A stretch of DNA of 64,000 nt from Candidatus Latescibacterota bacterium (GCA_965248435.1 OZ252100.1:4032001-4096000); one strand, 5' to 3'; shown: positions 3,858-45,180, numbered from the stretch's first letter. Numbers and translations are program-made. Notes: generated from the letters alone by a model not told the origin.

Positions 3858-5999
3858 TTACTTGACCTCGAATACTGCCTTGCCGACCCCAACATTGCCG
3901 AGCGCGTCTGCGCCACGAACCACCAGGGTATATTCACCCGGATCGAGGTGATCGAGCGTAAACTGAAGCATCTCGCTTCGCGAATCGAATATCTGGTCCG
4001 CCGGGAAGACCACCTTCCAGGTTCCGGAATTGAGAGAATAGCTGGCCTCCCGGATCGGGCTGATTGCGTCTTCAACCGCCGTCTCCACGGAGACGAGGCC
4101 TGGACCGGCCTGTCGGACCGATGATAGACGCACATGAGGAGGCGTATGGTCGATGTCGAACGGCTCACTCACCTTTTCAGAGGAGAGGGCCTGGGTTTCC
4201 GGATTGCTCAATCGATCGGAGGCGACCACTCTTAGCTGCATTGTGCCTTCGGGAGCGGATTCGACCTTCCAGAGATAGTTGGGCGAGGTGAGGTCTTTCT
4301 CCAGCAGCTTCCAATCTTTTTCCTCACGACCCCGGAAGTAGAGGTCGTAAATCAACTGGTCGCTGTTCACGTCGGCGGCAGACCAGGAGATCTTCCATAC
4401 GCCTTTCTCCTGGTCCTGGGGCTGGGGGCGGGCCTGGCGTTTTTCACCGTCCGACCCTGCGTTCCCGGAGGGACTGTTTCGACGTGCGGGGGATGTGATC
4501 TGAAGATCCAGGATCTGAGGCTCAAGGTTTTCCTGGAGGCCGGCCATCGTGACTTCCCGCAGTTTGGGCGTAGCACTTCCTGTCTTTGAGGTCATCACCG
4601 CTCGATACTGCAGGAATCTGGCCGGAGGGCTCAGGATCTGGCCGCCCTTCGAGGGTTCAGACCAGGGACTCCACGTATCGTCTGGGACCTCGCCGTTGCC
4701 CGACCGGGTCTGGAACGAGATGGAAGTGCCCTCCGTCTCCTCGGCTTTCCAGGCCAACTTCCCCCACTTGGACACGATTGTGAAATCTCTGGGTTCGGAG
4801 GTCAGCGTGCCCTTTTTCGAGTAGGATCGCTCCAACCGATGGACCGTCCCGGCCCCTGCGGCCCCGATCCAAAACCGGGCGTCTCGGGAAGGGCAAATTG
4901 CCCACGGTTGGAGATCCTCCATTCGAAGGATCAGGGTAGAGGTGCCATCATTTTTCACACGGTAGACAGATCCAGGGTCTCCGGTGAGGGCGGTAAGCTC
5001 ACCGCCTGCGTCAACGTGCAGCGACAGGAGGATCGGCTCTGGGGTCTGCCACAGTTTGATTGCTGCGCCAGATGGACGTATGGCATAAATCACAGAGGCT
5101 TCGCTGGCCGCCTCCTTCCCAGGTTGGGGAGGGGTCTTAGGCGGGGCCGCGTTTCCTCCGCTGAGCCTCGAACTTCCCGTCATCGCTCCGGCATAGAGCA
5201 TCCCGTCGGGTCCGAATGCCAGGGCGTGGACTTCCTTTTGAGATGCGTCGAAGAGGACTTGCACTTTACCGCTCTGGTCGACCTTGTAAACGAGCCCATT
5301 CTGATCAGTACCGGCGTAAAGGTTTCCATTCGGCGCCTGAATCAGCGAAACGATGTTGGGATCCGGGCTCTTGTAAATCTCTTTCGGTTTACCCTTCGAA
5401 GAGATCCGAAGGATGCGCCCGTTACTGCCGCCCGTGGCGGCGTAGAGATCGCCTCCGGGCTGCGGGACGAGCGCCCAGACGTGACTGTCGCCGGTCCGAC
5501 AAAAGGTGATCGGGTTCTTGCCGGGATCGATCCGATAGATGTTTCCGTCGGGTGAAGAGCCCGCGTAGAGGGTCCCATTCGGTCCGACCGCGAGGCTAAA
5601 GATTGCCACTTCAGGGGAATCAAACAGGAGTTCAGATACTCCCTTTCCTTCATCGTAGGCAAAGATCTTACCGCTGTTCCCCGTAGCGATGTAGAGCCGC
5701 CCCTTCTTACCCTCTGCCAGTGCCCATACGAATTCCTCGTCCGTATCCACAACCTGTTTGAGGCTGGGGCCGAGGGTTACGACCCCATCGCGGGTGATGG
5801 AGACATCCTCGGCCTCGCCCTTGATAAAGGACGCGCGGCTGTCCTCGCGCCAGATCGTCGGCACGACGGCATCTGCCGGTAGCTGAAGAAGACCCAGCAG
5901 ACATACGAACAGGGGCCAGGCCTGGCGAGCTTTAGTTCTTGTCTCGACTGGGCCCGGCCTTCTCATCAAATACGACACCATCTTTCTCCCTATCGACAT
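3858..5999 (-). CDS. Secreted beta-propeller (WD40-like) protein with C-terminal Ig/fibronectin-like region
   Basis: Signal-like FVCLLGLLQLPADA; repeated G-x-LY-A-[GA]-T blades; beta-rich C-terminus. True start is probably slightly downstream of 5999. Confidence 0.75.
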   Translation of the reverse strand: MSIGRKMVSYLMRRPGPVETRTKARQAWPLFVCLLGLLQLPADAVVPTIWREDSRASFIKGEAEDVSITRDGVVTLGPSLKQVVDTDEEFVWALAEGKKGRLYIATGNSGKIFAYDEGKGVSELLFDSPEVAIFSLAVGPNGTLYAGSSPDGNIYRIDPGKNPITFCRTGDSHVWALVPQPGGDLYAATGGSNGRILRISSKGKPKEIYKSPDPNIVSLIQAPNGNLYAGTDQNGLVYKVDQSGKVQVLFDASQKEVHALAFGPDGMLYAGAMTGSSRLSGGNAAPPKTPPQPGKEAASEASVIYAIRPSGAAIKLWQTPEPILLSLHVDAGGELTALTGDPGSVYRVKNDGTSTLILRMEDLQPWAICPSRDARFWIGAAGAGTVHRLERSYSKKGTLTSEPRDFTIVSKWGKLAWKAEETEGTSISFQTRSGNGEVPDDTWSPWSEPSKGGQILSPPARFLQYRAVMTSKTGSATPKLREVTMAGLQENLEPQILDLQITSPARRNSPSGNAGSDGEKRQARPQPQDQEKGVWKISWSAADVNSDQLIYDLYFRGREEKDWKLLEKDLTSPNYLWKVESAPEGTMQLRVVASDRLSNPETQALSSEKVSEPFDIDHTPPHVRLSSVRQAGPGLVSVETAVEDAISPIREASYSLNSGTWKVVFPADQIFDSRSEMLQFTLDHLDPGEYTLVVRGADALGNVGVGKAVFEVK

Positions 6000-33460: not shown

Positions 33461-33525
33461 GTGCCTCCCTTTCCGTTCTGGAAATGTTGCTGTGTCTAGT
33501 TCACATCACCGAACCGATAACCCGT

Positions 33526-33690
33526 TTTGTCATCCCGAGTGCAAGCGAGGGATCTCAACAGGAGACATATTACCCCTACGTCATGGAAAGATTCAGCAAA
33601 TTGCGCACTGTTGAGATTCCTCGTCGCCGTGGTCGTTGCCGTTCACCTGGATGCGAGACCAATTGCTTGTTGGCTCCTCGGAATGACAAA
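33526..33690. repeat. ~166-bp palindromic element (MITE/REP-like), copy 1
   Basis: TTTGTCATCCCGAG...GCGAGGGATCTCAACAGG...TGAGATTCCTCGTCGC...GCTCCTCGGAATGACAAA. Confidence 0.85.
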
Positions 33691-33719
33691 TCTCGCCTTT
33701 ACGATACTGATACAAGAGC

Positions 33720-34601
33720 TTATCGGTCAAGTCGTTCCAGGAACTCGTCCAGCCAGTCTTCCTCCCCGAGGTGACGGGCGAAGTCGTTCTGCAAGTCGCG
33801 CTCGTCGTGGGCGTCCGATCCGCCCGTGGAAAAGAGGCCGTGTTTGACGCAGTACTTCCGGTAGCGCCGGGTAAACTCGGGCGGCACTGAACCGTGGGCA
33901 CATTCCAGGCCGTCGGCCTGACAGGTATCGAGATAGGCCTCGATCATCGATTCGTCATCGCCGACGTATCGGTAGGGATGTGCCAGGGCGACCAAAGCCC
34001 CGGACTGTTTCACGGCAGGGATGACGCTGTCAACGGCGGGAAAAGGAGGTGTGCTCACTTTTTCGCCCAGTCTTTCCATCAGAGGAGACAGCTCGTTCGG
34101 ATCGGAAATGAAGCCGCGGTCCGCGAGGAATCGCAGCCAGGCGTCGATCTGGCAGTCGGTGACGCCTTGAATATCGACGACGTTCGCGGGACGGTAGGAA
34201 CGGAGGAGCTCCAGGTAGTCCGCCTCGGTGACATCGAAGCCCAGCGCTTCGAGGCCCTTCCATCTCGCCTCGCCCGTTGCCCGCTGAAATTCCTGGTAGA
34301 TGTCGAGGACGTTTGAAAGAGGCCCTGAATCGTCTTGCTGAAGGCCGAAGCAGAGGAGATCGACGTGCCTCCGGTGGGGTGTGGATACGGTGAACTCTGC
34401 AGCCGGGATCGCTCTCACATCCGGATAGTCGCGACCCGCTTCGTCGATCCGGTCTGCGCCGTCCATGACCATGTGGTCGGTGACGGCGATACACCGCACG
34501 CCCTGTGTCTGGGCGTGCTGAAAGTAGCCCTCGAGGGTGTTGAACGCGTCGTAGCTCCAGCAGGTGTGAAGGTGGAGGTCATACGAGAGGCGCTGGAGCA
34601 T
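33720..34601 (-). CDS. PHP-domain phosphoesterase (YciV/TrpH-like)
   Basis: DLHLHT, TDH, LAHP, GGSDAH. Confidence 0.9.
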   Translation of the reverse strand: MLQRLSYDLHLHTCWSYDAFNTLEGYFQHAQTQGVRCIAVTDHMVMDGADRIDEAGRDYPDVRAIPAAEFTVSTPHRRHVDLLCFGLQQDDSGPLSNVLDIYQEFQRATGEARWKGLEALGFDVTEADYLELLRSYRPANVVDIQGVTDCQIDAWLRFLADRGFISDPNELSPLMERLGEKVSTPPFPAVDSVIPAVKQSGALVALAHPYRYVGDDESMIEAYLDTCQADGLECAHGSVPPEFTRRYRKYCVKHGLFSTGGSDAHDERDLQNDFARHLGEEDWLDEFLERLDR

Positions 34602-36114: not shown

Positions 36115-37086
36115 CTACTGGCCATCTTCTACTTCACTGATGACGGTGAAGCGATCGACGACCTTGCCGGAGATGTCTTTGAACATAAAGTCGGCGCGGT
36201 TTTTCTGGCCGTCGACGTTGAAGACACCGAAGAGGGCGCCGTGGGTACCGCCGCGGTCGGCGGTGTGGACGCTCGCCCACCACTTGCCGAGGGGGTACTG
36301 CTTGCGCTTGCGGACGCTCTTCCCGCCCAGACCGGAGACGATGACGAAGGTCCGGCCCTCGGCGAGGCGGAGCGTGTCGGATTTGCTGGCGATTTTCCGG
36401 CGCTTGATGTCCTCGAGGAGATAGGTTCTGCCGTAGGTATGGTCGTGGCCCGTGGTGATGATCGCGCCGCCCAGCCTGGCCTCGCGGTAGACGTCCCAGC
36501 CGGTCGCGTTGGCGTTTCCGCCTATCTGCATGGGCCTCATGTTTTTGTGCCACGAGCAGATGCTCCATATGGAGCGATCGATCGCGAGGCTTTCCCGGAT
36601 GTAGACGTCGTGGTCGAAGCCGATCTCCCCGGGCGCGACGAAGACGAAATAGATGCCTTTGTAGTGGAAGCGGGACTGGACGCCGAGGTCGCCCTCCCAC
36701 TCGATGCCGAGCCGGTTGAAGCGACTCTCGATCAGCTGCTGATATCCCTTCGGGATCCTCCACCTTGACCGGTCGTGGTTCCCGATCACGGAGAAGTATG
36801 GAAAATCAGGGCCCAGGATCCCGTTGATCTGCTTCTCCCATTCAAGGGGTTTGTTCTTGTAGTCTAAGTCACCGGCATGCACCACAGCGTGGGCGCCTTC
36901 GGTTTTGATCATCCAGAGCACCGCCTTCGAGCTGGCGTAAAGTCCCTGGTCCCCGATGAAGGCGATCTTGAAATTCTCGGGCGTTTCGTCGGAGGTCTCT
37001 TCTGCGTGGGTCGGAAGCGGGGCGATCAGCAGCAGCAATAGAGCTGAAGCGACCCTCAGTATTCTTCTTGATGAATTGCAGCTCAT
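36115..37086 (-). CDS. Secreted calcineurin-like metallophosphoesterase
   Basis: Signal peptide, IGDQG, HAGDLDY, GNHD, GHDHTY. Confidence 0.85.
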   Translation of the reverse strand: MSCNSSRRILRVASALLLLLIAPLPTHAEETSDETPENFKIAFIGDQGLYASSKAVLWMIKTEGAHAVVHAGDLDYKNKPLEWEKQINGILGPDFPYFSVIGNHDRSRWRIPKGYQQLIESRFNRLGIEWEGDLGVQSRFHYKGIYFVFVAPGEIGFDHDVYIRESLAIDRSIWSICSWHKNMRPMQIGGNANATGWDVYREARLGGAIITTGHDHTYGRTYLLEDIKRRKIASKSDTLRLAEGRTFVIVSGLGGKSVRKRKQYPLGKWWASVHTADRGGTHGALFGVFNVDGQKNRADFMFKDISGKVVDRFTVISEVEDGQ

Positions 37087-37184
37087 TAGACCTAACCCCC
37101 CGGCCAGCGGCTCTCTAATTGCGGATTGCGGATTTGGGATTGCGGATTCAAAAGGCAGACCACGAAACGTGCTTGTGACTCCCC

Positions 37185-37350
37185 TTTGTCATTCCGAGCG
37201 TCAGCGAGGAATCTCAACAGGTAATGTGGCAGTCGTTACCTTAGGGAATGACTCAGTGAGGAGCTCTCTCTTGAGATCCCTCGTCGCATGGTCACTCTGA
37301 GTCTTACCGAAACTATGTTTATGTCCCGAAGGGCTCCTCGGGATGACAAA
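37185..37350. repeat. ~166-bp palindromic element, copy 2
   Basis: Same conserved blocks as 33526-33690. Confidence 0.85.
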
Positions 37351-37378
37351 TTTTGCAGTTGGGATGGGCGACGCATCG

Positions 37379-38143
37379 CTAAGAGATCAATCCATGTGTC
37401 CGCAGATAGGTGAGCGATTTTTCGATTCGCTGTTCCACGCCTTCGCGAGTGATTTCCTCTCCGCGGATGCCTTCGAGCTCCAGGGTATACGGGCCGTCGA
37501 AGCCCCGGGCACCCAGCATCTGAAATATCGAGGGGAAATCGACGATGCCCTCGCCGAGGGCGGGGAAGTGCCAGGACTGGTAGCCGCCGTCGGTATCTTT
37601 GAGGTGGACTGTGGCTACATATTCTATAATCTTATCCAGTTCTTGAACCGCGTCAACATCCCGGTTGTAGTAGTAGAGGTTCGCGGTGTCGAAGTTGATC
37701 GAGATGTTGGGATGGTTGACACCTCGCATGGTATGAAGCGCGACGTTCGCATTGGTCGCCAGATCGGGATGGGTCTCCATGACCACGACGATGTTTCGTT
37801 CGGCGGCCGCGTCACCGATGTCCTGAAGGCGGCCGTAGACGAAGTCGCGGCCGATCTCGCTGGAGTGCACGCTGGTGAATACAAGCGGTACGTCCATTTC
37901 GGCGACGATGTCGAGTGCCCTGGTGAATCGGAAGACGACGTCGTCGGCACCCATCTCGCACTGAACCATGAGGATGGTTGGCCTGAGTCCGTGGCGTTCA
38001 AGCTCCGCTCGCGTCGCGTCGACGTCCCGAGGCTCGGGGCAGGGGATCTCGACGTTCGTAAGCCCGATTCGAGCCAGGTGTGCGTAGGCCGTCTCTCTGA
38101 ATTCCCGGTAGCTGTTGAGGTTGCAGGCGATGATGTTGGACAT
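37379..38143 (-). CDS. Sugar phosphate isomerase/epimerase (xylose isomerase-like TIM barrel)
   Basis: METH, FDTAN, VHLKD, LGEG-x-VDF, TLELE. Confidence 0.9.
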   Translation of the reverse strand: MSNIIACNLNSYREFRETAYAHLARIGLTNVEIPCPEPRDVDATRAELERHGLRPTILMVQCEMGADDVVFRFTRALDIVAEMDVPLVFTSVHSSEIGRDFVYGRLQDIGDAAAERNIVVVMETHPDLATNANVALHTMRGVNHPNISINFDTANLYYYNRDVDAVQELDKIIEYVATVHLKDTDGGYQSWHFPALGEGIVDFPSIFQMLGARGFDGPYTLELEGIRGEEITREGVEQRIEKSLTYLRTHGLIS

Positions 38144-38147
38144 ACCG

Positions 38148-38615
38148 TTATTTCACGACGCGCACGATCCGGTCTCCTCGCGGGGGATCGAATCCGAGAA
38201 GGGCTTTTACGTTCGGAAGGAGAACCCCCTCGTTCAGGTTCGCGTCGACGATCAGAACGGCGGAGATTCGTTTGATTCGCGGGGAGGTGCGGAGGGTGTG
38301 CCGGACGGTTCTGGAGATCGCGTGGACGGTCTGCCGCGTCTGGCGGGTTCTGTCAGGGCGCTTCTCCAGAGCCAGTCGAGATGAGATGAAGGGTCCTTGC
38401 CGCGCTTCGAGTCGGGTCTCTTCAACTCGGTCGGCGTCCAACTCAACGGTGACCTGGATTCTGGCTCGCCCTGGACCGAGTAGACGGTCGAGAAGGGACT
38501 GGGTCTTCACTTCGAGACGCGAGGACGTTCTACGGGCAAGGAAGCTGTTTTCCGAACCGGCCCAGCTGGAGGAGGAGAACAAAAAGAAGAGGGTAAGAGA
38601 AAGGATCGCGCGCAT
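38148..38615 (-). CDS. Small secreted protein resembling the FliF C-terminal ring-building domain
   Basis: LLDRLLGPGRARIQVTVELD, IKRISAVLIVD, LGFD-x2-RGD-x-I resemble the YscJ_FliF_C pattern. Confidence 0.65.
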   Translation of the reverse strand: MRAILSLTLFFLFSSSSWAGSENSFLARRTSSRLEVKTQSLLDRLLGPGRARIQVTVELDADRVEETRLEARQGPFISSRLALEKRPDRTRQTRQTVHAISRTVRHTLRTSPRIKRISAVLIVDANLNEGVLLPNVKALLGFDPPRGDRIVRVVK

Positions 38616-38620
38616 CGGCG

Positions 38621-38848
38621 TCAGAAAAGCATTCGAATGAGCAGCGAGATCGCGATGAAGACGACAATGGGCGAAAGGTCGAGTCCGCCCATCGAGGGGA
38701 GGACGCGACGGATGGGGGCGAGCACCGGCTCCGTGAGGACGTAGAAGATCCTGACGAGCGGGTTGAAGGGGTTCGGATTCACCCAGGAGAGGATGACGCG
38801 GATGATCAGGACGTAGGAGTAGAGTTTCAGGATGGTGACGAGGAGCAT
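38621..38848 (-). CDS. yggT: YggT family membrane protein
   Basis: IRVILSW, LTEPVLAPIRR, GGLDLSP. Confidence 0.92.
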   Translation of the reverse strand: MLLVTILKLYSYVLIIRVILSWVNPNPFNPLVRIFYVLTEPVLAPIRRVLPSMGGLDLSPIVVFIAISLLIRMLF

Positions 38849-40325: not shown

Positions 40326-41742
40326 CGAATCGTTGGCGTTGGCTTCAGCGACCGATCTCCTGAAGCTGATCGCGACGAAACAGGTTTCACCAGTTGAGCT
40401 GACAGAGCTTTTCTTCAGCCGCATCGATCGACTGGACTCACAGCTGAACGCCTTCCTCGAGTTGGCCCGCGACGAGGCGATGGAGACAGCGAAGGCCGCC
40501 GAGGAGGCCGTGGTCCGAGGTGAACCGCTGGGACCGCTTCACGGACTGCCGATCCCGATCAAGGACAACCAGATGACACGCGGCATCCGGACGACTTCGG
40601 GATCGCTGGTGTTTAAAGACCGAGTGCCAGAGCGCGACTGCGCCGTGGTAGAGCACGTACGGAATGCCGGGGCTATCATCCTGGGCAAGACCAACGTTCC
40701 GGAGTTCGCCATGGTCGGCACGTGTGAGAACAGACTCGGCGACCCGGGAGGCAACCCCTGGAATCTCGAGTACACACCGGGGGGATCGAGCGGGGGCGCT
40801 GCCGCCGCGGTGGCCGCATATCTGTGTCCCCTGGCGACGGGCAGTGACGGCGGCGGGTCGATACGGATCCCGGCGCACTTCTGCGGTGTGTATGGCATCA
40901 AGCCGACGCAGGGCAGGGTGTCGGGCTTCACCGGTCTTAAGGGACCGCCCAAGCCTTACATGCTCTCGCAGAACGGGCCCCTCAGCCGCGCGGTGAGGGA
41001 TTCGGCGTTGCTCCTGCAGGTCCTGGCCGGTCACGATTCCAGGGACCCGACCTCGCTGCGGGAGGCACCCGGCGATTACGTCGCAGCACTCGACCAGGAG
41101 GTCTCGGGTCTTCGCGTTGCGTGGAGCCCGGACTTCGGGTTTGCGGACGTGGACCCTGAAGTCTTGGACGTCACTTCCGCTGCTGCTCGCGTGTTCGAAG
41201 AATTGGGCTGTCACGTGGAGGAATCCGACTTTGCGATGGATCCCCCCTACGACACGTTCGGGCCGATGATCGATGCGGACTGCTACGCCTCACTCGGTCA
41301 ATATCTGGAGCGTCACGGCGATCAAATGACCGAATTCGTCCGGTTCTCACTCGAACGTGGCGCCAGGGTCACCGGTGCTGATTATTCGAGGGTCCTGGGT
41401 CAAATCAACGTATTGCGGGCCCGTATGACGGATCTGTTCGAGGAGTTCGACCTCCTGCTTTCGCCGACGGCCTGTTTTCCCGCATTTCCCAACGGAGCGT
41501 TTCCCGGTGAAGTCTCCGGCAGATCGGCCTACCCCGAACAGTACTGGAACGGCGCGTTCACGCTGCCGATCAACGTGATCGGTCATACCGCGGCCAACGT
41601 CCCTGCAGGCTTCTCGAGCAGCGGTCTGCCGATCGGTCTTCACATCGTGGGCAGAAAGGGAGCGGAAGAGACGGTCCTGGCCGCATCGGCTGCATTCGAG
41701 CGTGCGAGGCCGTGGATCGGACGCAGACCCCAAGTGTCATGA
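40306..41742 (+). CDS. Amidase-signature family enzyme
   Basis: GPLHGLPIPIKD, GGSSGG, GSDGGGSIRIPA. Confidence 0.93.
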   Translation: MGRIVGDESLALASATDLLKLIATKQVSPVELTELFFSRIDRLDSQLNAFLELARDEAMETAKAAEEAVVRGEPLGPLHGLPIPIKDNQMTRGIRTTSGSLVFKDRVPERDCAVVEHVRNAGAIILGKTNVPEFAMVGTCENRLGDPGGNPWNLEYTPGGSSGGAAAAVAAYLCPLATGSDGGGSIRIPAHFCGVYGIKPTQGRVSGFTGLKGPPKPYMLSQNGPLSRAVRDSALLLQVLAGHDSRDPTSLREAPGDYVAALDQEVSGLRVAWSPDFGFADVDPEVLDVTSAAARVFEELGCHVEESDFAMDPPYDTFGPMIDADCYASLGQYLERHGDQMTEFVRFSLERGARVTGADYSRVLGQINVLRARMTDLFEEFDLLLSPTACFPAFPNGAFPGEVSGRSAYPEQYWNGAFTLPINVIGHTAANVPAGFSSSGLPIGLHIVGRKGAEETVLAASAAFERARPWIGRRPQVS

Positions 41743-41803
41743 AACCCGTATCTCGTATTTCGTATCTCGTGGGCCATACACGTTGGACGAGAGGAGCAAA
41801 GAC

Positions 41804-42541
41804 ATGAAATTGACGCAAGAGCAGATATGGTTTTTCGAACACAACGGATTTGTCGTGCTGCCTTACCGGCTGCCCGAATCGACCGTCGAAAAGATCAGGC
41901 AGGTTGTCCTCCGGGATATCGAAGCCGCGAAGGAGCCGATCGGGCACGATGAAGATGGCAATGTCCACCGGCTGAGCAACATCCTGGAACGGGATCCAAT
42001 CTTCTGGGAAACGGCGACGGACCCGGGGCTGCTGGACGGGTTGGAGTCTCTGATCGGGCCGAATATCGAAGTTATCCGAAATCGGCACAACCACGTGATG
42101 CTACGGACAGCCAGGGGCGGGCACGTCTACATGCACCGGGACGCGTTCAACTGGACGGCTTCGAGCGTGTCGGTGATCATCTACCTCGAGGAGACCAACA
42201 TGGACAACGGCTGCACCGAGGTCGTTCCCGGCACGAACCATTTGCCCTATGCGGAGCTTCCACTCGAGGAAAATGAAAAGATTCTGCGATCGGGTCTCCT
42301 GGACCAGCACGTGCGGGTGCCCATGAAGGTGGGAGGGATCCTGGCCTTGAACAGCATGACCTTTCACAGTCAGGGGCCGAACTTCACGGAGCGATCCCGG
42401 ATGAGCATCACGATTGGCTATCAGGGGGCCAACGAACTTTGCGGCGTGGAGGATCCGAAATCGACTGTGGTTCGCGGAGAGAACAGGTATCGAGGGAACG
42501 ACAGGGGGAGGACGGGCGGGCGAATTTCAGCAAAGGCGTGA
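41804..42541 (+). CDS. Phytanoyl-CoA dioxygenase (PhyH) family Fe/2OG enzyme
   Basis: LT-x-EQ-x3-F-x2-NGF, HRD, NGCTEVVPG, distal His, N-x4-R. Confidence 0.88.
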   Translation: MKLTQEQIWFFEHNGFVVLPYRLPESTVEKIRQVVLRDIEAAKEPIGHDEDGNVHRLSNILERDPIFWETATDPGLLDGLESLIGPNIEVIRNRHNHVMLRTARGGHVYMHRDAFNWTASSVSVIIYLEETNMDNGCTEVVPGTNHLPYAELPLEENEKILRSGLLDQHVRVPMKVGGILALNSMTFHSQGPNFTERSRMSITIGYQGANELCGVEDPKSTVVRGENRYRGNDRGRTGGRISAKA

Positions 42542-42557
42542 GGGGAAGGATCACTCT

Positions 42558-43619
42558 GTGGATTCATCGCGTTCTGTCGAGCACAGGAAGACGGCTCGCA
42601 GCGTCGGGCTCAACTATGTGACGGACGGCCTTCCCGGCATTACCCGACGACGAGCGGGAAAGGGTTGGACGTTCTTCAGGCCCAGCGGCGCGCGGGTCAC
42701 GAACCCCAAAGAGCGAGAACGCATCAAATCGCTCGTGATTCCACCGGCGTGGACCGATGTGTGGATCTGCCCGGATCCGAAGGGCCATATCCAGGTCACG
42801 GCACGCGATGCCAGAGGCCGAAAGCAGTATCGCTACCATCCGACGTATCGCGAGGCGCGTGACAAATCGAAGTTCCGTCATCTGTTCGAGATGAGCGAGG
42901 TCCTCCCTGCCATCCGGGAGCGGGCGGAGCGCGACCTTCGGGCACCGGCGCTGAGTCGGCGCCAGATTCTCGCCACTGCTGTTCAGCTGCTGGATATGAC
43001 GCTCATCCGCGTTGGCAGCGACGAGTACGCGAAAGAGAATCGATCCTTCGGGCTGACGACGCTACGTGACCGGCACGTGCAGGTGGACGGGGCCAACCTG
43101 CAGTTCAGCTTCCGAGGAAAGAGCGGCGTTCAGCGCGCGCTGTCGATTACGGATCGCCGGATCGCCCGCATCGTTCAGCGGTGCCGGGACCTCCCGGGAC
43201 AGGAGCTGTTCCAGTACGTGGATGGATCGGGGCTTCAGGAAACAATTACGTCAGACGACGTGAACGACTACCTCAGGAAGACCTCGGGACTTCATATCAC
43301 GGCAAAGGACTTCCGGACCTGGGGCGGTACGATACTGGCGGGTACCGAGTTGCGCGAGATGGGCCCCGCGCCGAACGAGCGCAAGGCGACGCACAACATC
43401 AACCGCGCGATCGATGTGGTGGCCGAACGGCTGGGGAATACGCGCACGGTCTGCAATAAGTACTATGTTCACCCGGCGCTGCTCGAGGCGTATCTCCAGG
43501 GCTTGACTGCCGGACCCTCCGTGAGTGCTCCGCCTCGAAAGACCCGACGCAAGCGGCGTGTCGCTGCGCTGCGGCGGGACGAGGTGGCGATTCTGCAGTT
43601 TCTCCACGACTTGGAGTAA
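42558..43619 (+). CDS. DNA topoisomerase IB (bacterial/poxvirus type)
   Basis: IPPAWTDVWIC, GRKQYRYH, IRVG, FRGKSG, KDFRTW, LGNT-x2-VC-x2-YY. Confidence 0.95.
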   Translation: MDSSRSVEHRKTARSVGLNYVTDGLPGITRRRAGKGWTFFRPSGARVTNPKERERIKSLVIPPAWTDVWICPDPKGHIQVTARDARGRKQYRYHPTYREARDKSKFRHLFEMSEVLPAIRERAERDLRAPALSRRQILATAVQLLDMTLIRVGSDEYAKENRSFGLTTLRDRHVQVDGANLQFSFRGKSGVQRALSITDRRIARIVQRCRDLPGQELFQYVDGSGLQETITSDDVNDYLRKTSGLHITAKDFRTWGGTILAGTELREMGPAPNERKATHNINRAIDVVAERLGNTRTVCNKYYVHPALLEAYLQGLTAGPSVSAPPRKTRRKRRVAALRRDEVAILQFLHDLE

Positions 43620-43627
43620 GAGACCTG

Positions 43628-43794
43628 TTTGTCATTCCGAGCGTATGCGAGGAATCTCAACAGGCAGCGCATCAGCCAATACATCTAGATAAGGGATCAC
43701 GAGGTACCATAGTGCTGAGATTCCTCGTCGCTGCGTCTATCTGCATTCGCTATGAAATCGAGCTCCGACTCTGGAGCGCTCCTCGGAATGACAA
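43628..43794. repeat. ~166-bp palindromic element, copy 3
   Basis: Same conserved blocks as 33526-33690. Confidence 0.85.
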
Positions 43795-43800
43795 GCTCGC

Positions 43801-45180
43801 TTGGAAGGGGAAATATTGAGACCACTGGACGTTCAAAAGCGATGTGAGCTTCACGTCCATCCCGGCGGTTGTTTTACCGCAGAAGACGTGGCGATGCTGG
43901 GAAGAGATGTCTATCGGGAGGTGGACTGGACACTCTACTGCGATTCTTACGAAGAGGCGTTCGGCACGCGTCCGGATCCGCACGCGATGTTCGAGGCTGT
44001 GGCGGCAGATGAATCTGGGAGTCTGGATCGCTTTCGAGAGCAGTTTGTGGTTGGCGAGCGAGACGGGGGGGACTTCGCACGGTTCCAGGCCAAGTTCAGG
44101 TTTGTGATCTGTCTCTACCGATACTACCTGGAGTTGCCCTCAGGATGCGAGCAGATGATGGAATGTGTGATCGACCGACATCGTAGCGAGGGCTTGAACT
44201 ATGTAGAGTATCGCGGTAGTCGTGACAGTCGGGATGACGAAGAATTCCTTTCGTTTCATGGCGTGAACGCGATGACGCTCCAGGACGCCTCACGAGATAA
44301 TTTTACGCTCCGCTATATCGTTTCCCTGCGACGATGGGCTGCACTCGAAGACTACGCGCTTGTGCAACGCCTGATGGATGAATGGCCGGAGCTGATCCCG
44401 ACGATCGTGGGTGTGGATTTCTGCTTCATTGAAGAAGGATACCCGCCGAAAAATCTACGCCCGTTGTTCGAACGGGTGTTTGAAGACAATAGAAATCGCC
44501 CGGAGCGCGCGTTAGGCATCGTCTACCACGTCGGCGAGTCCTACTTCGACAAGTCGCTCGAGAGTTCGATCCGATGGTGTCACGAGGCGGCTGAGATGGG
44601 GGCAGATAGGTTGGGGCACGCGACTGCCCTGGGTCTCGACCCCGCGGCAGCGATTGCGAGGCGCCCTAAAGCGCACGAGGTCGAACTGGTGAGCGAGCGT
44701 ATCGATCAGATCGATTATGACCTGAAGCACTGCAGAGCGCTCGAGGCTTGTGGGATCGTCGTCGACCCCGTTACGCTGCAGAAGGAACGGGTTAGATTGC
44801 GGAGTATGAACCTGGAGGAAAGCGTCGGACGACGGTATGACGATGCTCGAATCGAGGAGAACCGAAAGCGACAGCGTTTCGTGCTGGAACATCTTGCCGA
44901 TCTTGGGACCGTGGTCGAGAGCTGTCCGACGTCCAATCTCACGATCGGCGCCGTTCCGGACGCGGCCCATCACCCCGTTCATCGCTTCCTGAGCTCTGAC
45001 GTGAACCTCGCGATCTGCTCGGATGACCCCGGAATCTTCGACGCTCCGCTCGAGAGTGAATTGGACTGGGTGCTGGACCATTCGGAGATGAATGCCGGCG
45101 CGCTGGAGAAACGTCTCGGGGATCCGCTCCGGTTCAGGCTGGATAGAAACAGAAGCGCAAGTGCTGGAGTAATGGAGTAA
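43801..45180 (+). CDS. Adenosine/AMP deaminase-like protein
   Basis: ELHVH, YVEYR, HVGES, RLGHA, ESCPTSN, SDDPG. Confidence 0.82.
   Translation: MEGEILRPLDVQKRCELHVHPGGCFTAEDVAMLGRDVYREVDWTLYCDSYEEAFGTRPDPHAMFEAVAADESGSLDRFREQFVVGERDGGDFARFQAKFRFVICLYRYYLELPSGCEQMMECVIDRHRSEGLNYVEYRGSRDSRDDEEFLSFHGVNAMTLQDASRDNFTLRYIVSLRRWAALEDYALVQRLMDEWPELIPTIVGVDFCFIEEGYPPKNLRPLFERVFEDNRNRPERALGIVYHVGESYFDKSLESSIRWCHEAAEMGADRLGHATALGLDPAAAIARRPKAHEVELVSERIDQIDYDLKHCRALEACGIVVDPVTLQKERVRLRSMNLEESVGRRYDDARIEENRKRQRFVLEHLADLGTVVESCPTSNLTIGAVPDAAHHPVHRFLSSDVNLAICSDDPGIFDAPLESELDWVLDHSEMNAGALEKRLGDPLRFRLDRNRSASAGVME

Follow-up and report, generated by a model that had tools for sequence, protein, structure and literature searches.

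The ~166-bp element that is present in three copies in the stretch of DNA analysed here (64,000 nucleotides, G000:C1:4032001-4096000; hereafter the window) is, at a probability which we put at roughly 0.8, an inverted pair of Ssn-related hairpins (Ssn-related motifs, SRM, of the NTS/dRS3 type) with a likely GIY-YIG partner. To judge by its sequence, the element is an apparently new variant within a repeat system known since 2025, and is not guide-carrying. The genome which carries the window, denoted G000, has a size of 5.67 Mb and a G+C content of 56.6%.

The Ssn family was introduced in 2025 as the first group of site-specific nucleases with cleavage confined to single-stranded DNA (Chenal et al. 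2025, Nat Commun 16:2388; PMC11893778). According to that report, SsnA is a 94-aa single-domain GIY-YIG protein (CDD cd10448), which binds its motif as single-stranded DNA only and cuts a few nucleotides upstream, being inactive on duplex DNA, on RNA and on the reverse strand. The motif, NTS (CGTCATTCCCGCGMAVGCGGGAATCYRG), is a longer directional motif found in half of the Neisseria dRS3 repeats; NTS-like SRMs flank ssnA homologues in many phyla, with 71% of the homologues having at least one nearby SRM and 42% having an SRM on both sides. In N. meningitidis, the Ssn system lowers transformation by NTS-bearing DNA, and the authors remark on the IS-like NTS-ssnA-NTS layout and on an analogy with RAYT/REP/BIME (PMC11893778).

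Copies of the element and their conservation

The coordinates and block order of the three window copies, as proposed in the initial annotation, are borne out by a reading of the sequence (Table 1). The head motif, GTCATYCCGAG-N(3-9)-GCGAGGRATC, matches three times in the window, on the + strand each time, and has no match in any of 100 dinucleotide-preserving shuffles of the window; genome-wide, the strict head motif gives 14 matches, compared with none for a reversed-pattern control. Searches with nhmmer and with a covariance model of the element, built from 17 G000 copies, both find 19 family loci in G000. These comprise 15 full copies, two 124-bp copies in which insert 2 is absent, one copy split by an insertion sequence (IS) and one degenerate copy.

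Table 1. Parts of the three window copies, their neighbouring genes, and the window segments that have no counterpart in the same-genus genome G001 (positions counted from the first nucleotide of the window).
Feature	Position	Strand	Evidence or content
Copy 1, composite element (SRM, spacer, inverted SRM)	33526..33690	+	nhmmer E=2e-51; covariance model (CM) 145.9 bits
Copy 1 SRM-A, TTTGTCATCCCGAG-loop-GCGAGGGATCTCAAC	33526..33559	+	pattern match 33529-33554
Copy 1 insert 1, 50-nt spacer between SRMs	33560..33609	.	alignment A3
Copy 1 SRM-B	33610..33690	-	insert 2 within loop: 33629-33671, 43 nt
Copy 1 neighbours			minus-strand DHDPS gene and PHP-domain gene, one each side
Segment with copy 1	33477-34593		copy 1 and PHP-domain gene
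Copy 2, composite element	37185..37350	+	nhmmer E=1e-52; CM 176.7 bits
Copy 2 SRM-A	37185..37218	+	pattern match 37188-37213
Copy 2 insert 1, 51-nt spacer	37219..37269	.	alignment A3
Copy 2 SRM-B	37270..37350	-	insert 2 within loop: 37289-37331, 43 nt
Copy 2 neighbours			minus-strand metallophosphoesterase gene and AP_endonuc_2 gene
Segment with copy 2	37053-38633		copy 2, near left edge, AP_endonuc_2 gene and one further ORF
Copy 3, composite element	43628..43794	+	nhmmer E=5e-51; CM 142.1 bits
Copy 3 SRM-A	43628..43661	+	pattern match 43631-43656
Copy 3 insert 1, 52-nt spacer	43662..43713	.	alignment A3
Copy 3 SRM-B	43714..43794	-	insert 2 within loop: 43733-43776, 44 nt
Copy 3 neighbours			plus-strand topoisomerase IB gene and adenosine-deaminase-family gene
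Segment with copy 3	41730-43810		ORF, topoisomerase IB gene and copy 3 at right edge

Conservation along the element is uneven, as had been claimed for the three window copies. In the alignment of the 17 copies (A3), the arm segments have a mean pairwise identity of 88-92%, against 59.8% for insert 1, which has a clear consensus, and 28.8% for insert 2, in which subgroups are present. The initial annotation described the inserts as having no visible similarity. That description does not hold: the three window copies, which rank among the more diverged, share 44-55% identity in insert 1, whose consensus extends over all 17 copies. Insert length, which was said to be fixed for both inserts, is indeed nearly constant for insert 1 (50-52 nt in 16 of the 17 copies, 40 nt in the remaining one) but not for insert 2, which measures 38-46 nt in 14 copies, 32 nt in one and 4 nt in two. 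The inserts of the 166-bp element are diverged homologues. There are no dispersed near-identical copies in G000, the most similar pair being a local tandem duplicate with inserts that are 92-95% identical. Exact public contigs span copy 1, and copies 2 and 3, and among the joints listed none falls at an element end.

The relatedness of the inserts bears directly on the reading of the element as a structured or guide RNA, in which the scaffold would be an RNA fold and the inserts programmable segments. The conserved scaffold, the kept length of insert 1 and the ability of the long hairpin to fold are all in keeping with an RNA of this kind, and guide-like cargo was suggested in the initial annotation, which itself named alignment of the inserts as ordinary diverged homologues as evidence to the contrary; such alignment is what the copies show. 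The BLAST searches proposed there for the inserts gave no support to the idea either. With blastn-short, 42 of the 44 matches in G000 lie in known copies and the other two are chance-level 16-mers, and copy 2, searched whole, has no match in phage or plasmid records. The whole window has no Rfam match at the gathering score, and a relaxed threshold, applied to the related loci L012, L097 and L105, returned only spurious miRNA-hairpin matches far below the cut-off. Furthermore, copies 1 and 2 are antisense to both of their neighbouring genes and copy 3 is sense, the two hairpins of the element are best formed on opposite strands, and the characterised Ssn enzyme is reported not to bind RNA (PMC11893778). 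An RNA function of this type is thus highly improbable, and we reject the guide reading on the homology of the inserts across the 17 copies and on the lack of targets for them in G000.

Two hairpin motifs on opposite strands

Each conserved end of the element is a hairpin, GTCATYCCGAG..GCGAGGRATCTC. The left end, read on the + strand (SRM-A), and the right end, read on the - strand (SRM-B), have a common 5′ half, TTTGTCATYCCGAG, and a common 3′ half, CGAGGRATCTCAA. In copy 1, SRM-A carries a compensated C/G variant of the stem (alignment columns 15-34), and the reverse complement of SRM-B is TTTGTCATTCCGAGGAGCC...GGCGACGAGGAATCTCAAC. Read on the - strand, the right half of the element consists of TTTGTCATYCCGAGGAGCC, followed by insert 2 and then by GGCGACGAGGRATCTCAA; insert 1 is the spacer between the SRMs, and insert 2 enlarges the loop of SRM-B. 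All 17 aligned copies have GTCAT, the ATTCC..GGAAT palindrome and its adjacent C; GGRATC, whose C lies directly 3′ of the palindrome, is invariant in them. TGTCAT stands before ATYCC in 16 of the 17 and TGCCAT in one, which is true of SRM-A and SRM-B alike.

The initial annotation paired the blocks as an outer stem and an inner stem. Nested stems of this type can form, and are the structure chosen by RNAalifold, but the covariation sits in the local hairpins instead. The scaffold is polymorphic at one Y/R position per arm, and this variation is compensated inside each hairpin: the arm 1/arm 2 pair is UA in 16 copies and CG in one, and the arm 3/arm 4 pair (columns 104-171) is CG in 10, UA in seven and unpaired in none of the 17. 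Under the nested model, a position of the inner stem would place A opposite C, unpaired, in 10 of the 17 copies. The cells of helix 1 are paired in 100% of the aligned copies; where the nested stems lack covariation, this is because they are invariant. It follows from the Y/R pair counts on A3 that the selected pairing is that of arm 1 with arm 2 and of arm 3 with arm 4, although the covariation, which rests on two informative pairs within G000, could partly reflect subfamily structure. A reading of the blocks as a pair of neighbouring hairpin motifs, one per strand, is preferable to one as nested stems, and the nested palindrome is a by-product of the presence of two inverted copies of one hairpin.

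As read from the sequence, the proper strand of each hairpin carries purine-purine mismatches (G.A / A.G), and the opposite strand pyrimidine-pyrimidine ones. The energies predicted for DNA folding are ordinary (z -1.3 to -2.2), and the strand with the G.A mismatches is not favoured by the folding model. SRM-A of copy 2 gives the expected hairpin in the DNA fold, at -4.4 kcal/mol (z -1.3). For SRM-B with its 43-nt loop, the arm 3/arm 4 stem is not the minimum-energy structure, a local hairpin being in competition with it. No secondary structure is predicted by RNAalifold for insert 1.

Relation to the Ssn/SRM system

The likeness of the element to the Ssn/SRM system, as this is set out in PMC11893778, includes the GTCAT lead, the ATTCC..GGAAT palindrome and the C after it, the many intergenic copies which cluster around genes, the occurrence across phyla, and a ~100-aa single-domain GIY-YIG gene that is flanked by its own motif. 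For the published system, the cytosine after the palindrome is reported to matter for binding and the 3 nt before the palindrome for cleavage, whilst cleavage survives replacement, extension or splitting of the hairpin loop; in view of this tolerance, the location of insert 2 inside a loop fits (PMC11893778). The G000 variant differs in the tandem G.A / A.G mismatches of its stem (GAGCG..GCGA), and in that its motifs nearly always form inverted pairs with a 50-52-nt spacer and a ~43-nt loop in the second motif. The available text of PMC11893778 holds no description of this fixed composite (inverted pair, ~51-nt spacer, loop-loaded second motif).

The search string published for SRMs, HGTCWYN(0-2)YYVSBRHN(0-5)WNVSBRGN(0-2)RNCYNB, was derived from 29 genomes, none of them acidobacterial (PMC11893778). 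Neither strand of any of the three window copies matches it, nor does any of 150 units from 128 loci of other genomes; the variant is missed because the G.A mismatch bases fall on restricted S/B positions of the string. The motif catalogue in the same report is mostly derived from Proteobacteria, and Acidobacteria receive no mention in its main text. In its Supplementary Data 4, cd10448 homologues are recorded for genomes of Granulicella, Edaphobacter, Terriglobus and Acidobacterium, and among the entries listed the SRM enrichment of Terriglobia genomes is only ~0.9-1.7-fold (PMC11893778). Apart from this paper, nothing relevant was found among the matches listed in searches of the literature for the motif sequence, or for GIY-YIG proteins together with repeats.

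A constant scaffold with variable filling is also a property of the dRS3 repeats and NIMEs. In the Neisseria intergenic mosaic elements (NIMEs), variable units of tens of bases are bracketed by short conserved copies of a palindrome. The G000 element differs from these in genus and in filling, and in having one spacer between two inverted motifs, with no arrays.

A candidate GIY-YIG partner

The statement in the initial annotation that no partner enzyme lies beside the copies is true within the window, and the matches to PF01541 in G000 are all elsewhere: they occur at 344 kb, 351 kb and 3.44 Mb only, and correspond to two small genes and uvrC. The search proposed there, for a copy that flanks a GIY-YIG nuclease gene, succeeds outside the window, at G000:C1:344034-344333. 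This 100-aa ORF has GIY-YIG as its sole Pfam domain (E=1e-15), with a 124-bp copy of the element 113 nt upstream and a degenerate half-unit downstream. The nearest solved structure to the encoded protein is that of a UPF0213 protein, and the clade to which it belongs has the motifs Y.VYI, LYIGVT and REKQLKGW. Our own translation of the published E64A primer reads TRAKQLKKWNR (PMC11893778), which places the catalytic Glu of the N. meningitidis enzyme in the REKQLK.W motif of the clade. The 100-aa GIY-YIG protein is likely the cognate partner of the element, its size, domain make-up and motifs pointing to an Ssn homologue.

In a reverse test, the 100-aa protein was searched in 40 related genomes and 29 loci were fetched. 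At all 12 GIY-YIG loci with at least 49% identity to the protein, arm motifs occur within 700 bp, in most cases on both sides, as against none at the 17 more distant loci; four of the 12 clade loci lie within ~300 bp of covariance-model matches. Each of the 10 genomes with a clade gene has covariance-model matches, and elements are still present in 13 of the 31 related genomes that lack one. G001, with no clade gene (best match 36% identical), has two element copies, compared with the 19 loci of G000; G030 has 11 element matches and no GIY-YIG match at all. In genus g3, the nuclease gene directly follows a left half-element, and the 132-137-nt elements of this genus share that left part, as if they were internal-deletion derivatives. 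Homologues beside the same hairpin also occur in a Chloroflexota MAG, an alphaproteobacterial MAG and Pedobacter (three of the 128 loci listed from a wider scan, with a flank of only +-300 bp).

Flanking of a cognate nuclease gene by its own repeats is likewise known for REP/BIME/REPIN systems, which raises the alternative that the element is a REPIN, that is, a REP doublet mobilised by a RAYT (Y1 HUH) transposase. Inverted doublets of short imperfect palindromes which form a long hairpin are common to both, as would be, if the G000 enzyme resembles its characterised relatives, recognition of the hairpin in single-stranded DNA; G000 also contains five PF01797 (Y1_Tnp) matches. None of these five Y1 genes is near a unit of the element family, however, and the gene that is consistently flanked by units encodes a GIY-YIG nuclease instead of a Y1 HUH enzyme. 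We regard a REPIN as very improbable and prefer the assignment to an inverted SRM pair with a likely GIY-YIG partner.

The second small GIY-YIG gene of G000 (G000:C1:350819-351061; L191 1402-1722; minus strand) encodes 106 aa, 37% identical to the first. It is bracketed by an 11-bp inverted repeat, CCCCTCGATAC / GTATCGAGGGG, and the gene is followed by a long-looped hairpin, ATCCCGAG..GCGAGGGAT, that resembles a unit; relatives of this gene in other genomes have no arm motifs. At three loci of genus g6 (L195, L196 and L198), the nuclease gene is directly preceded by a tandem array in which a 56-nt unit, with AGATGCTTCGGCTACGCTCAGCATGACA at its end, is present two to four times.

Distribution in related genomes and in other phyla

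Among the 40 related genomes, elements with the same termini and hairpin but other interiors were found, with lengths of 52 to ~260 nt according to the model. A wider scan with a generalised form of the hairpin, using one genome per species, gave at least 128 stretches from Acidobacteriota, Chloroflexota, Nitrospirota, Omnitrophota, Bacteroidota, Bacillota, Planctomycetota, Verrucomicrobiota and Cyanobacteria, from several proteobacterial classes and candidate-phyla bacteria, and from one Nanoarchaeota bin. The plan common to the matches listed from these phyla is a hairpin, a variable spacer and an inverted hairpin. Of 150 units from 128 loci, 50 are accompanied by a simple inverted partner no more than 260 nt away, nine have a partner of the extended TCGTCG..CTCCTC type, as in G000, 13 have another partner, and 78 have none by the patterns used. 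Agreement between the two variable positions of the stem is seen in 146 of the 150 units, with four compensated stem types. A variant of the motif with tandem G.A mismatches escapes the published string and yet is present in at least 128 stretches from many phyla, and in the fixed inverted pair of the window one of the motifs accommodates a ~43-nt loop. If the cognate enzyme cuts both forms, this would widen the known range of sequence/enzyme pairs and would show how large a loop load is tolerated.

A near-identical motif across many phyla, and its tight link with one GIY-YIG clade, would be left unexplained if the hairpins were selected by the host independently of a nuclease, for example as terminators, mRNA stabilisers or nucleoid-protein sites. 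In addition, a T-run is lacking downstream of the hairpins in all three window copies. The copies are nonetheless intergenic, often between convergent or co-oriented genes (one lies inside the leuA-leuC spacer), and the two copies common to G000 and G001 are 94-96% identical in a region with an overall identity of 88.7%, both of which would suit a host function; on balance we consider such a function decidedly improbable as the explanation of the element.

Two side observations were made on the wider set of loci. In Terriglobia (L071, L075, L097, L105, L106, L128 and L139), an outer inverted repeat, AACAGGCTGCGGAAAAA .. TTTTTCCGCAGCCTGTT, is located ~12 nt beyond the hairpin pair, and what resembles a decayed form of it flanks the G000 copies (..ACAGC.. 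/ ..GGCTGTT..). In a Bacteroidales MAG (L091, ~301-400), an inverted hairpin pair is apparently in frame inside a regulator-like gene, as judged by eye, flanked by a stretch resembling 'RELQNCIEKA' and by a helix-turn-helix tail of the Fis type, an arrangement that recalls the intragenic palindromic elements of Rickettsia.

Genomic context and mobility

Comparison of the window with G001 shows three G000-specific segments, each of which has a copy of the element at or near one edge (Table 1). Gain or loss of whole segments, gene and repeat together, would account for this pattern no less well than transposition, and such element-edged segments recall the way in which NTS copies cluster near variable genes in Neisseria. 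Over the whole genome, 17 of the 19 G000 loci have no counterpart in G001. Homology between the two genomes stops 16-132 nt from the elements, or the spacer is diverged, and for this reason element ends and target duplications are not definable against G001.

The lack of counterparts in G001 at 17 of 19 loci, together with the terminal inverted repeats, the small size, the intergenic positions and the multiple copies, is what would be expected of a classical MITE, in this case a non-autonomous derivative of a DDE-transposase IS moved via the 14-bp terminal inverted repeats TTTGTCATYCCGAG / CTCGGRATGACAAA. Several observations make this origin improbable. No target-site duplication is visible in the flanks of any of 17 copies, and four queries for empty sites in G001 gave no clean pair of filled and empty sites. 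No G000 element with these ends carries a transposase, and the arms are kept as hairpins with covariation. The sole IS inside a copy belongs to the IS30 family: it measures 1,049 bp, encodes a 327-aa transposase, has ~26-bp inverted repeats that are unrelated to the element arms, and splits the copy at G000:C1:3322428-3323662 (L006 1490-2730) within insert 1.

Absence of target-site duplication is also a property of IS200/IS605 and palindrome-associated elements, in which, as would be the case here by analogy, subterminal hairpins are recognised in single-stranded DNA with strand-specific behaviour. The G000 element differs from IS200/IS605 in that its hairpins are on opposite strands, whereas both are on the same strand in IS200/IS605; it has no TnpA, and a conserved target tetranucleotide was not seen. 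With respect to replication, 14 of the 19 loci have the same orientation as the leading strand, judged by GC skew (binomial two-sided p ~0.06), and 11 of ~15 copies are co-oriented with their flanking genes. The leading-strand bias is confounded with gene orientation, and we therefore set it aside as evidence.

Proposed mechanism

The mechanism which we propose for the inverted SRM pair is modelled on the Neisseria and Wolbachia enzymes. The motif would fold where DNA becomes single-stranded, such as at replication forks or in incoming transforming or conjugating DNA, and the nuclease would bind the folded motif and nick a few nucleotides 5′ of GTCAT. As the motif is directional, we infer that an inverted pair serves either strand: whichever one is exposed would present one cuttable site, located at the 5′ element edge of that strand. 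Selection for nuclease recognition would keep the arms, with the spacer and the loop left to drift; the uneven decay of the element may be explained in this way, since nuclease recognition would constrain the arms only. The nuclease may contribute to the spreading of the repeat as well, or its role may lie solely in limiting recombination around the flanked genes.

The inverted pair may also serve as a strand-symmetric site of cutting at the borders of exchangeable gene cassettes, a reading that we consider unlikely. The location of copies near the edges of species-specific segments offers a testable link between these repeats and gene gain and loss in soil Acidobacteria. Equally tentatively, the inverted SRM pair could be the non-autonomous form of a selfish element that is mobilised by an Ssn GIY-YIG single-strand nuclease, which we likewise consider unlikely: were it true, IS200/IS605 and RAYT/REPIN would be joined by a third class of single-strand mobile DNA that depends on hairpins.

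Repeats that accompany the element

Further repeats are located beside several copies. Heptamer-like simple repeats, of the GCGGATT / GGGATTG type, are present at window positions 37117-37150, and public contigs break at 37145-37192, between this heptamer run and copy 2. GCGGATT / GGGATTG runs also flank the G000:C1 copies at 2249, 2429, 3900, 3902 and 5035 kb, and a second type of run, CGTGGATCG / CGTGAATCG, is found beside the copies at 4006, 4939 and 5084 kb. The copies at 687 kb (L002 1660-1730) and 5035 kb (3′ flank) have a common downstream repeat, CCTTCATCATTCGAYATTCTGC..TTCGACA, which indicates that the elements sit in mosaics of several repeat families.
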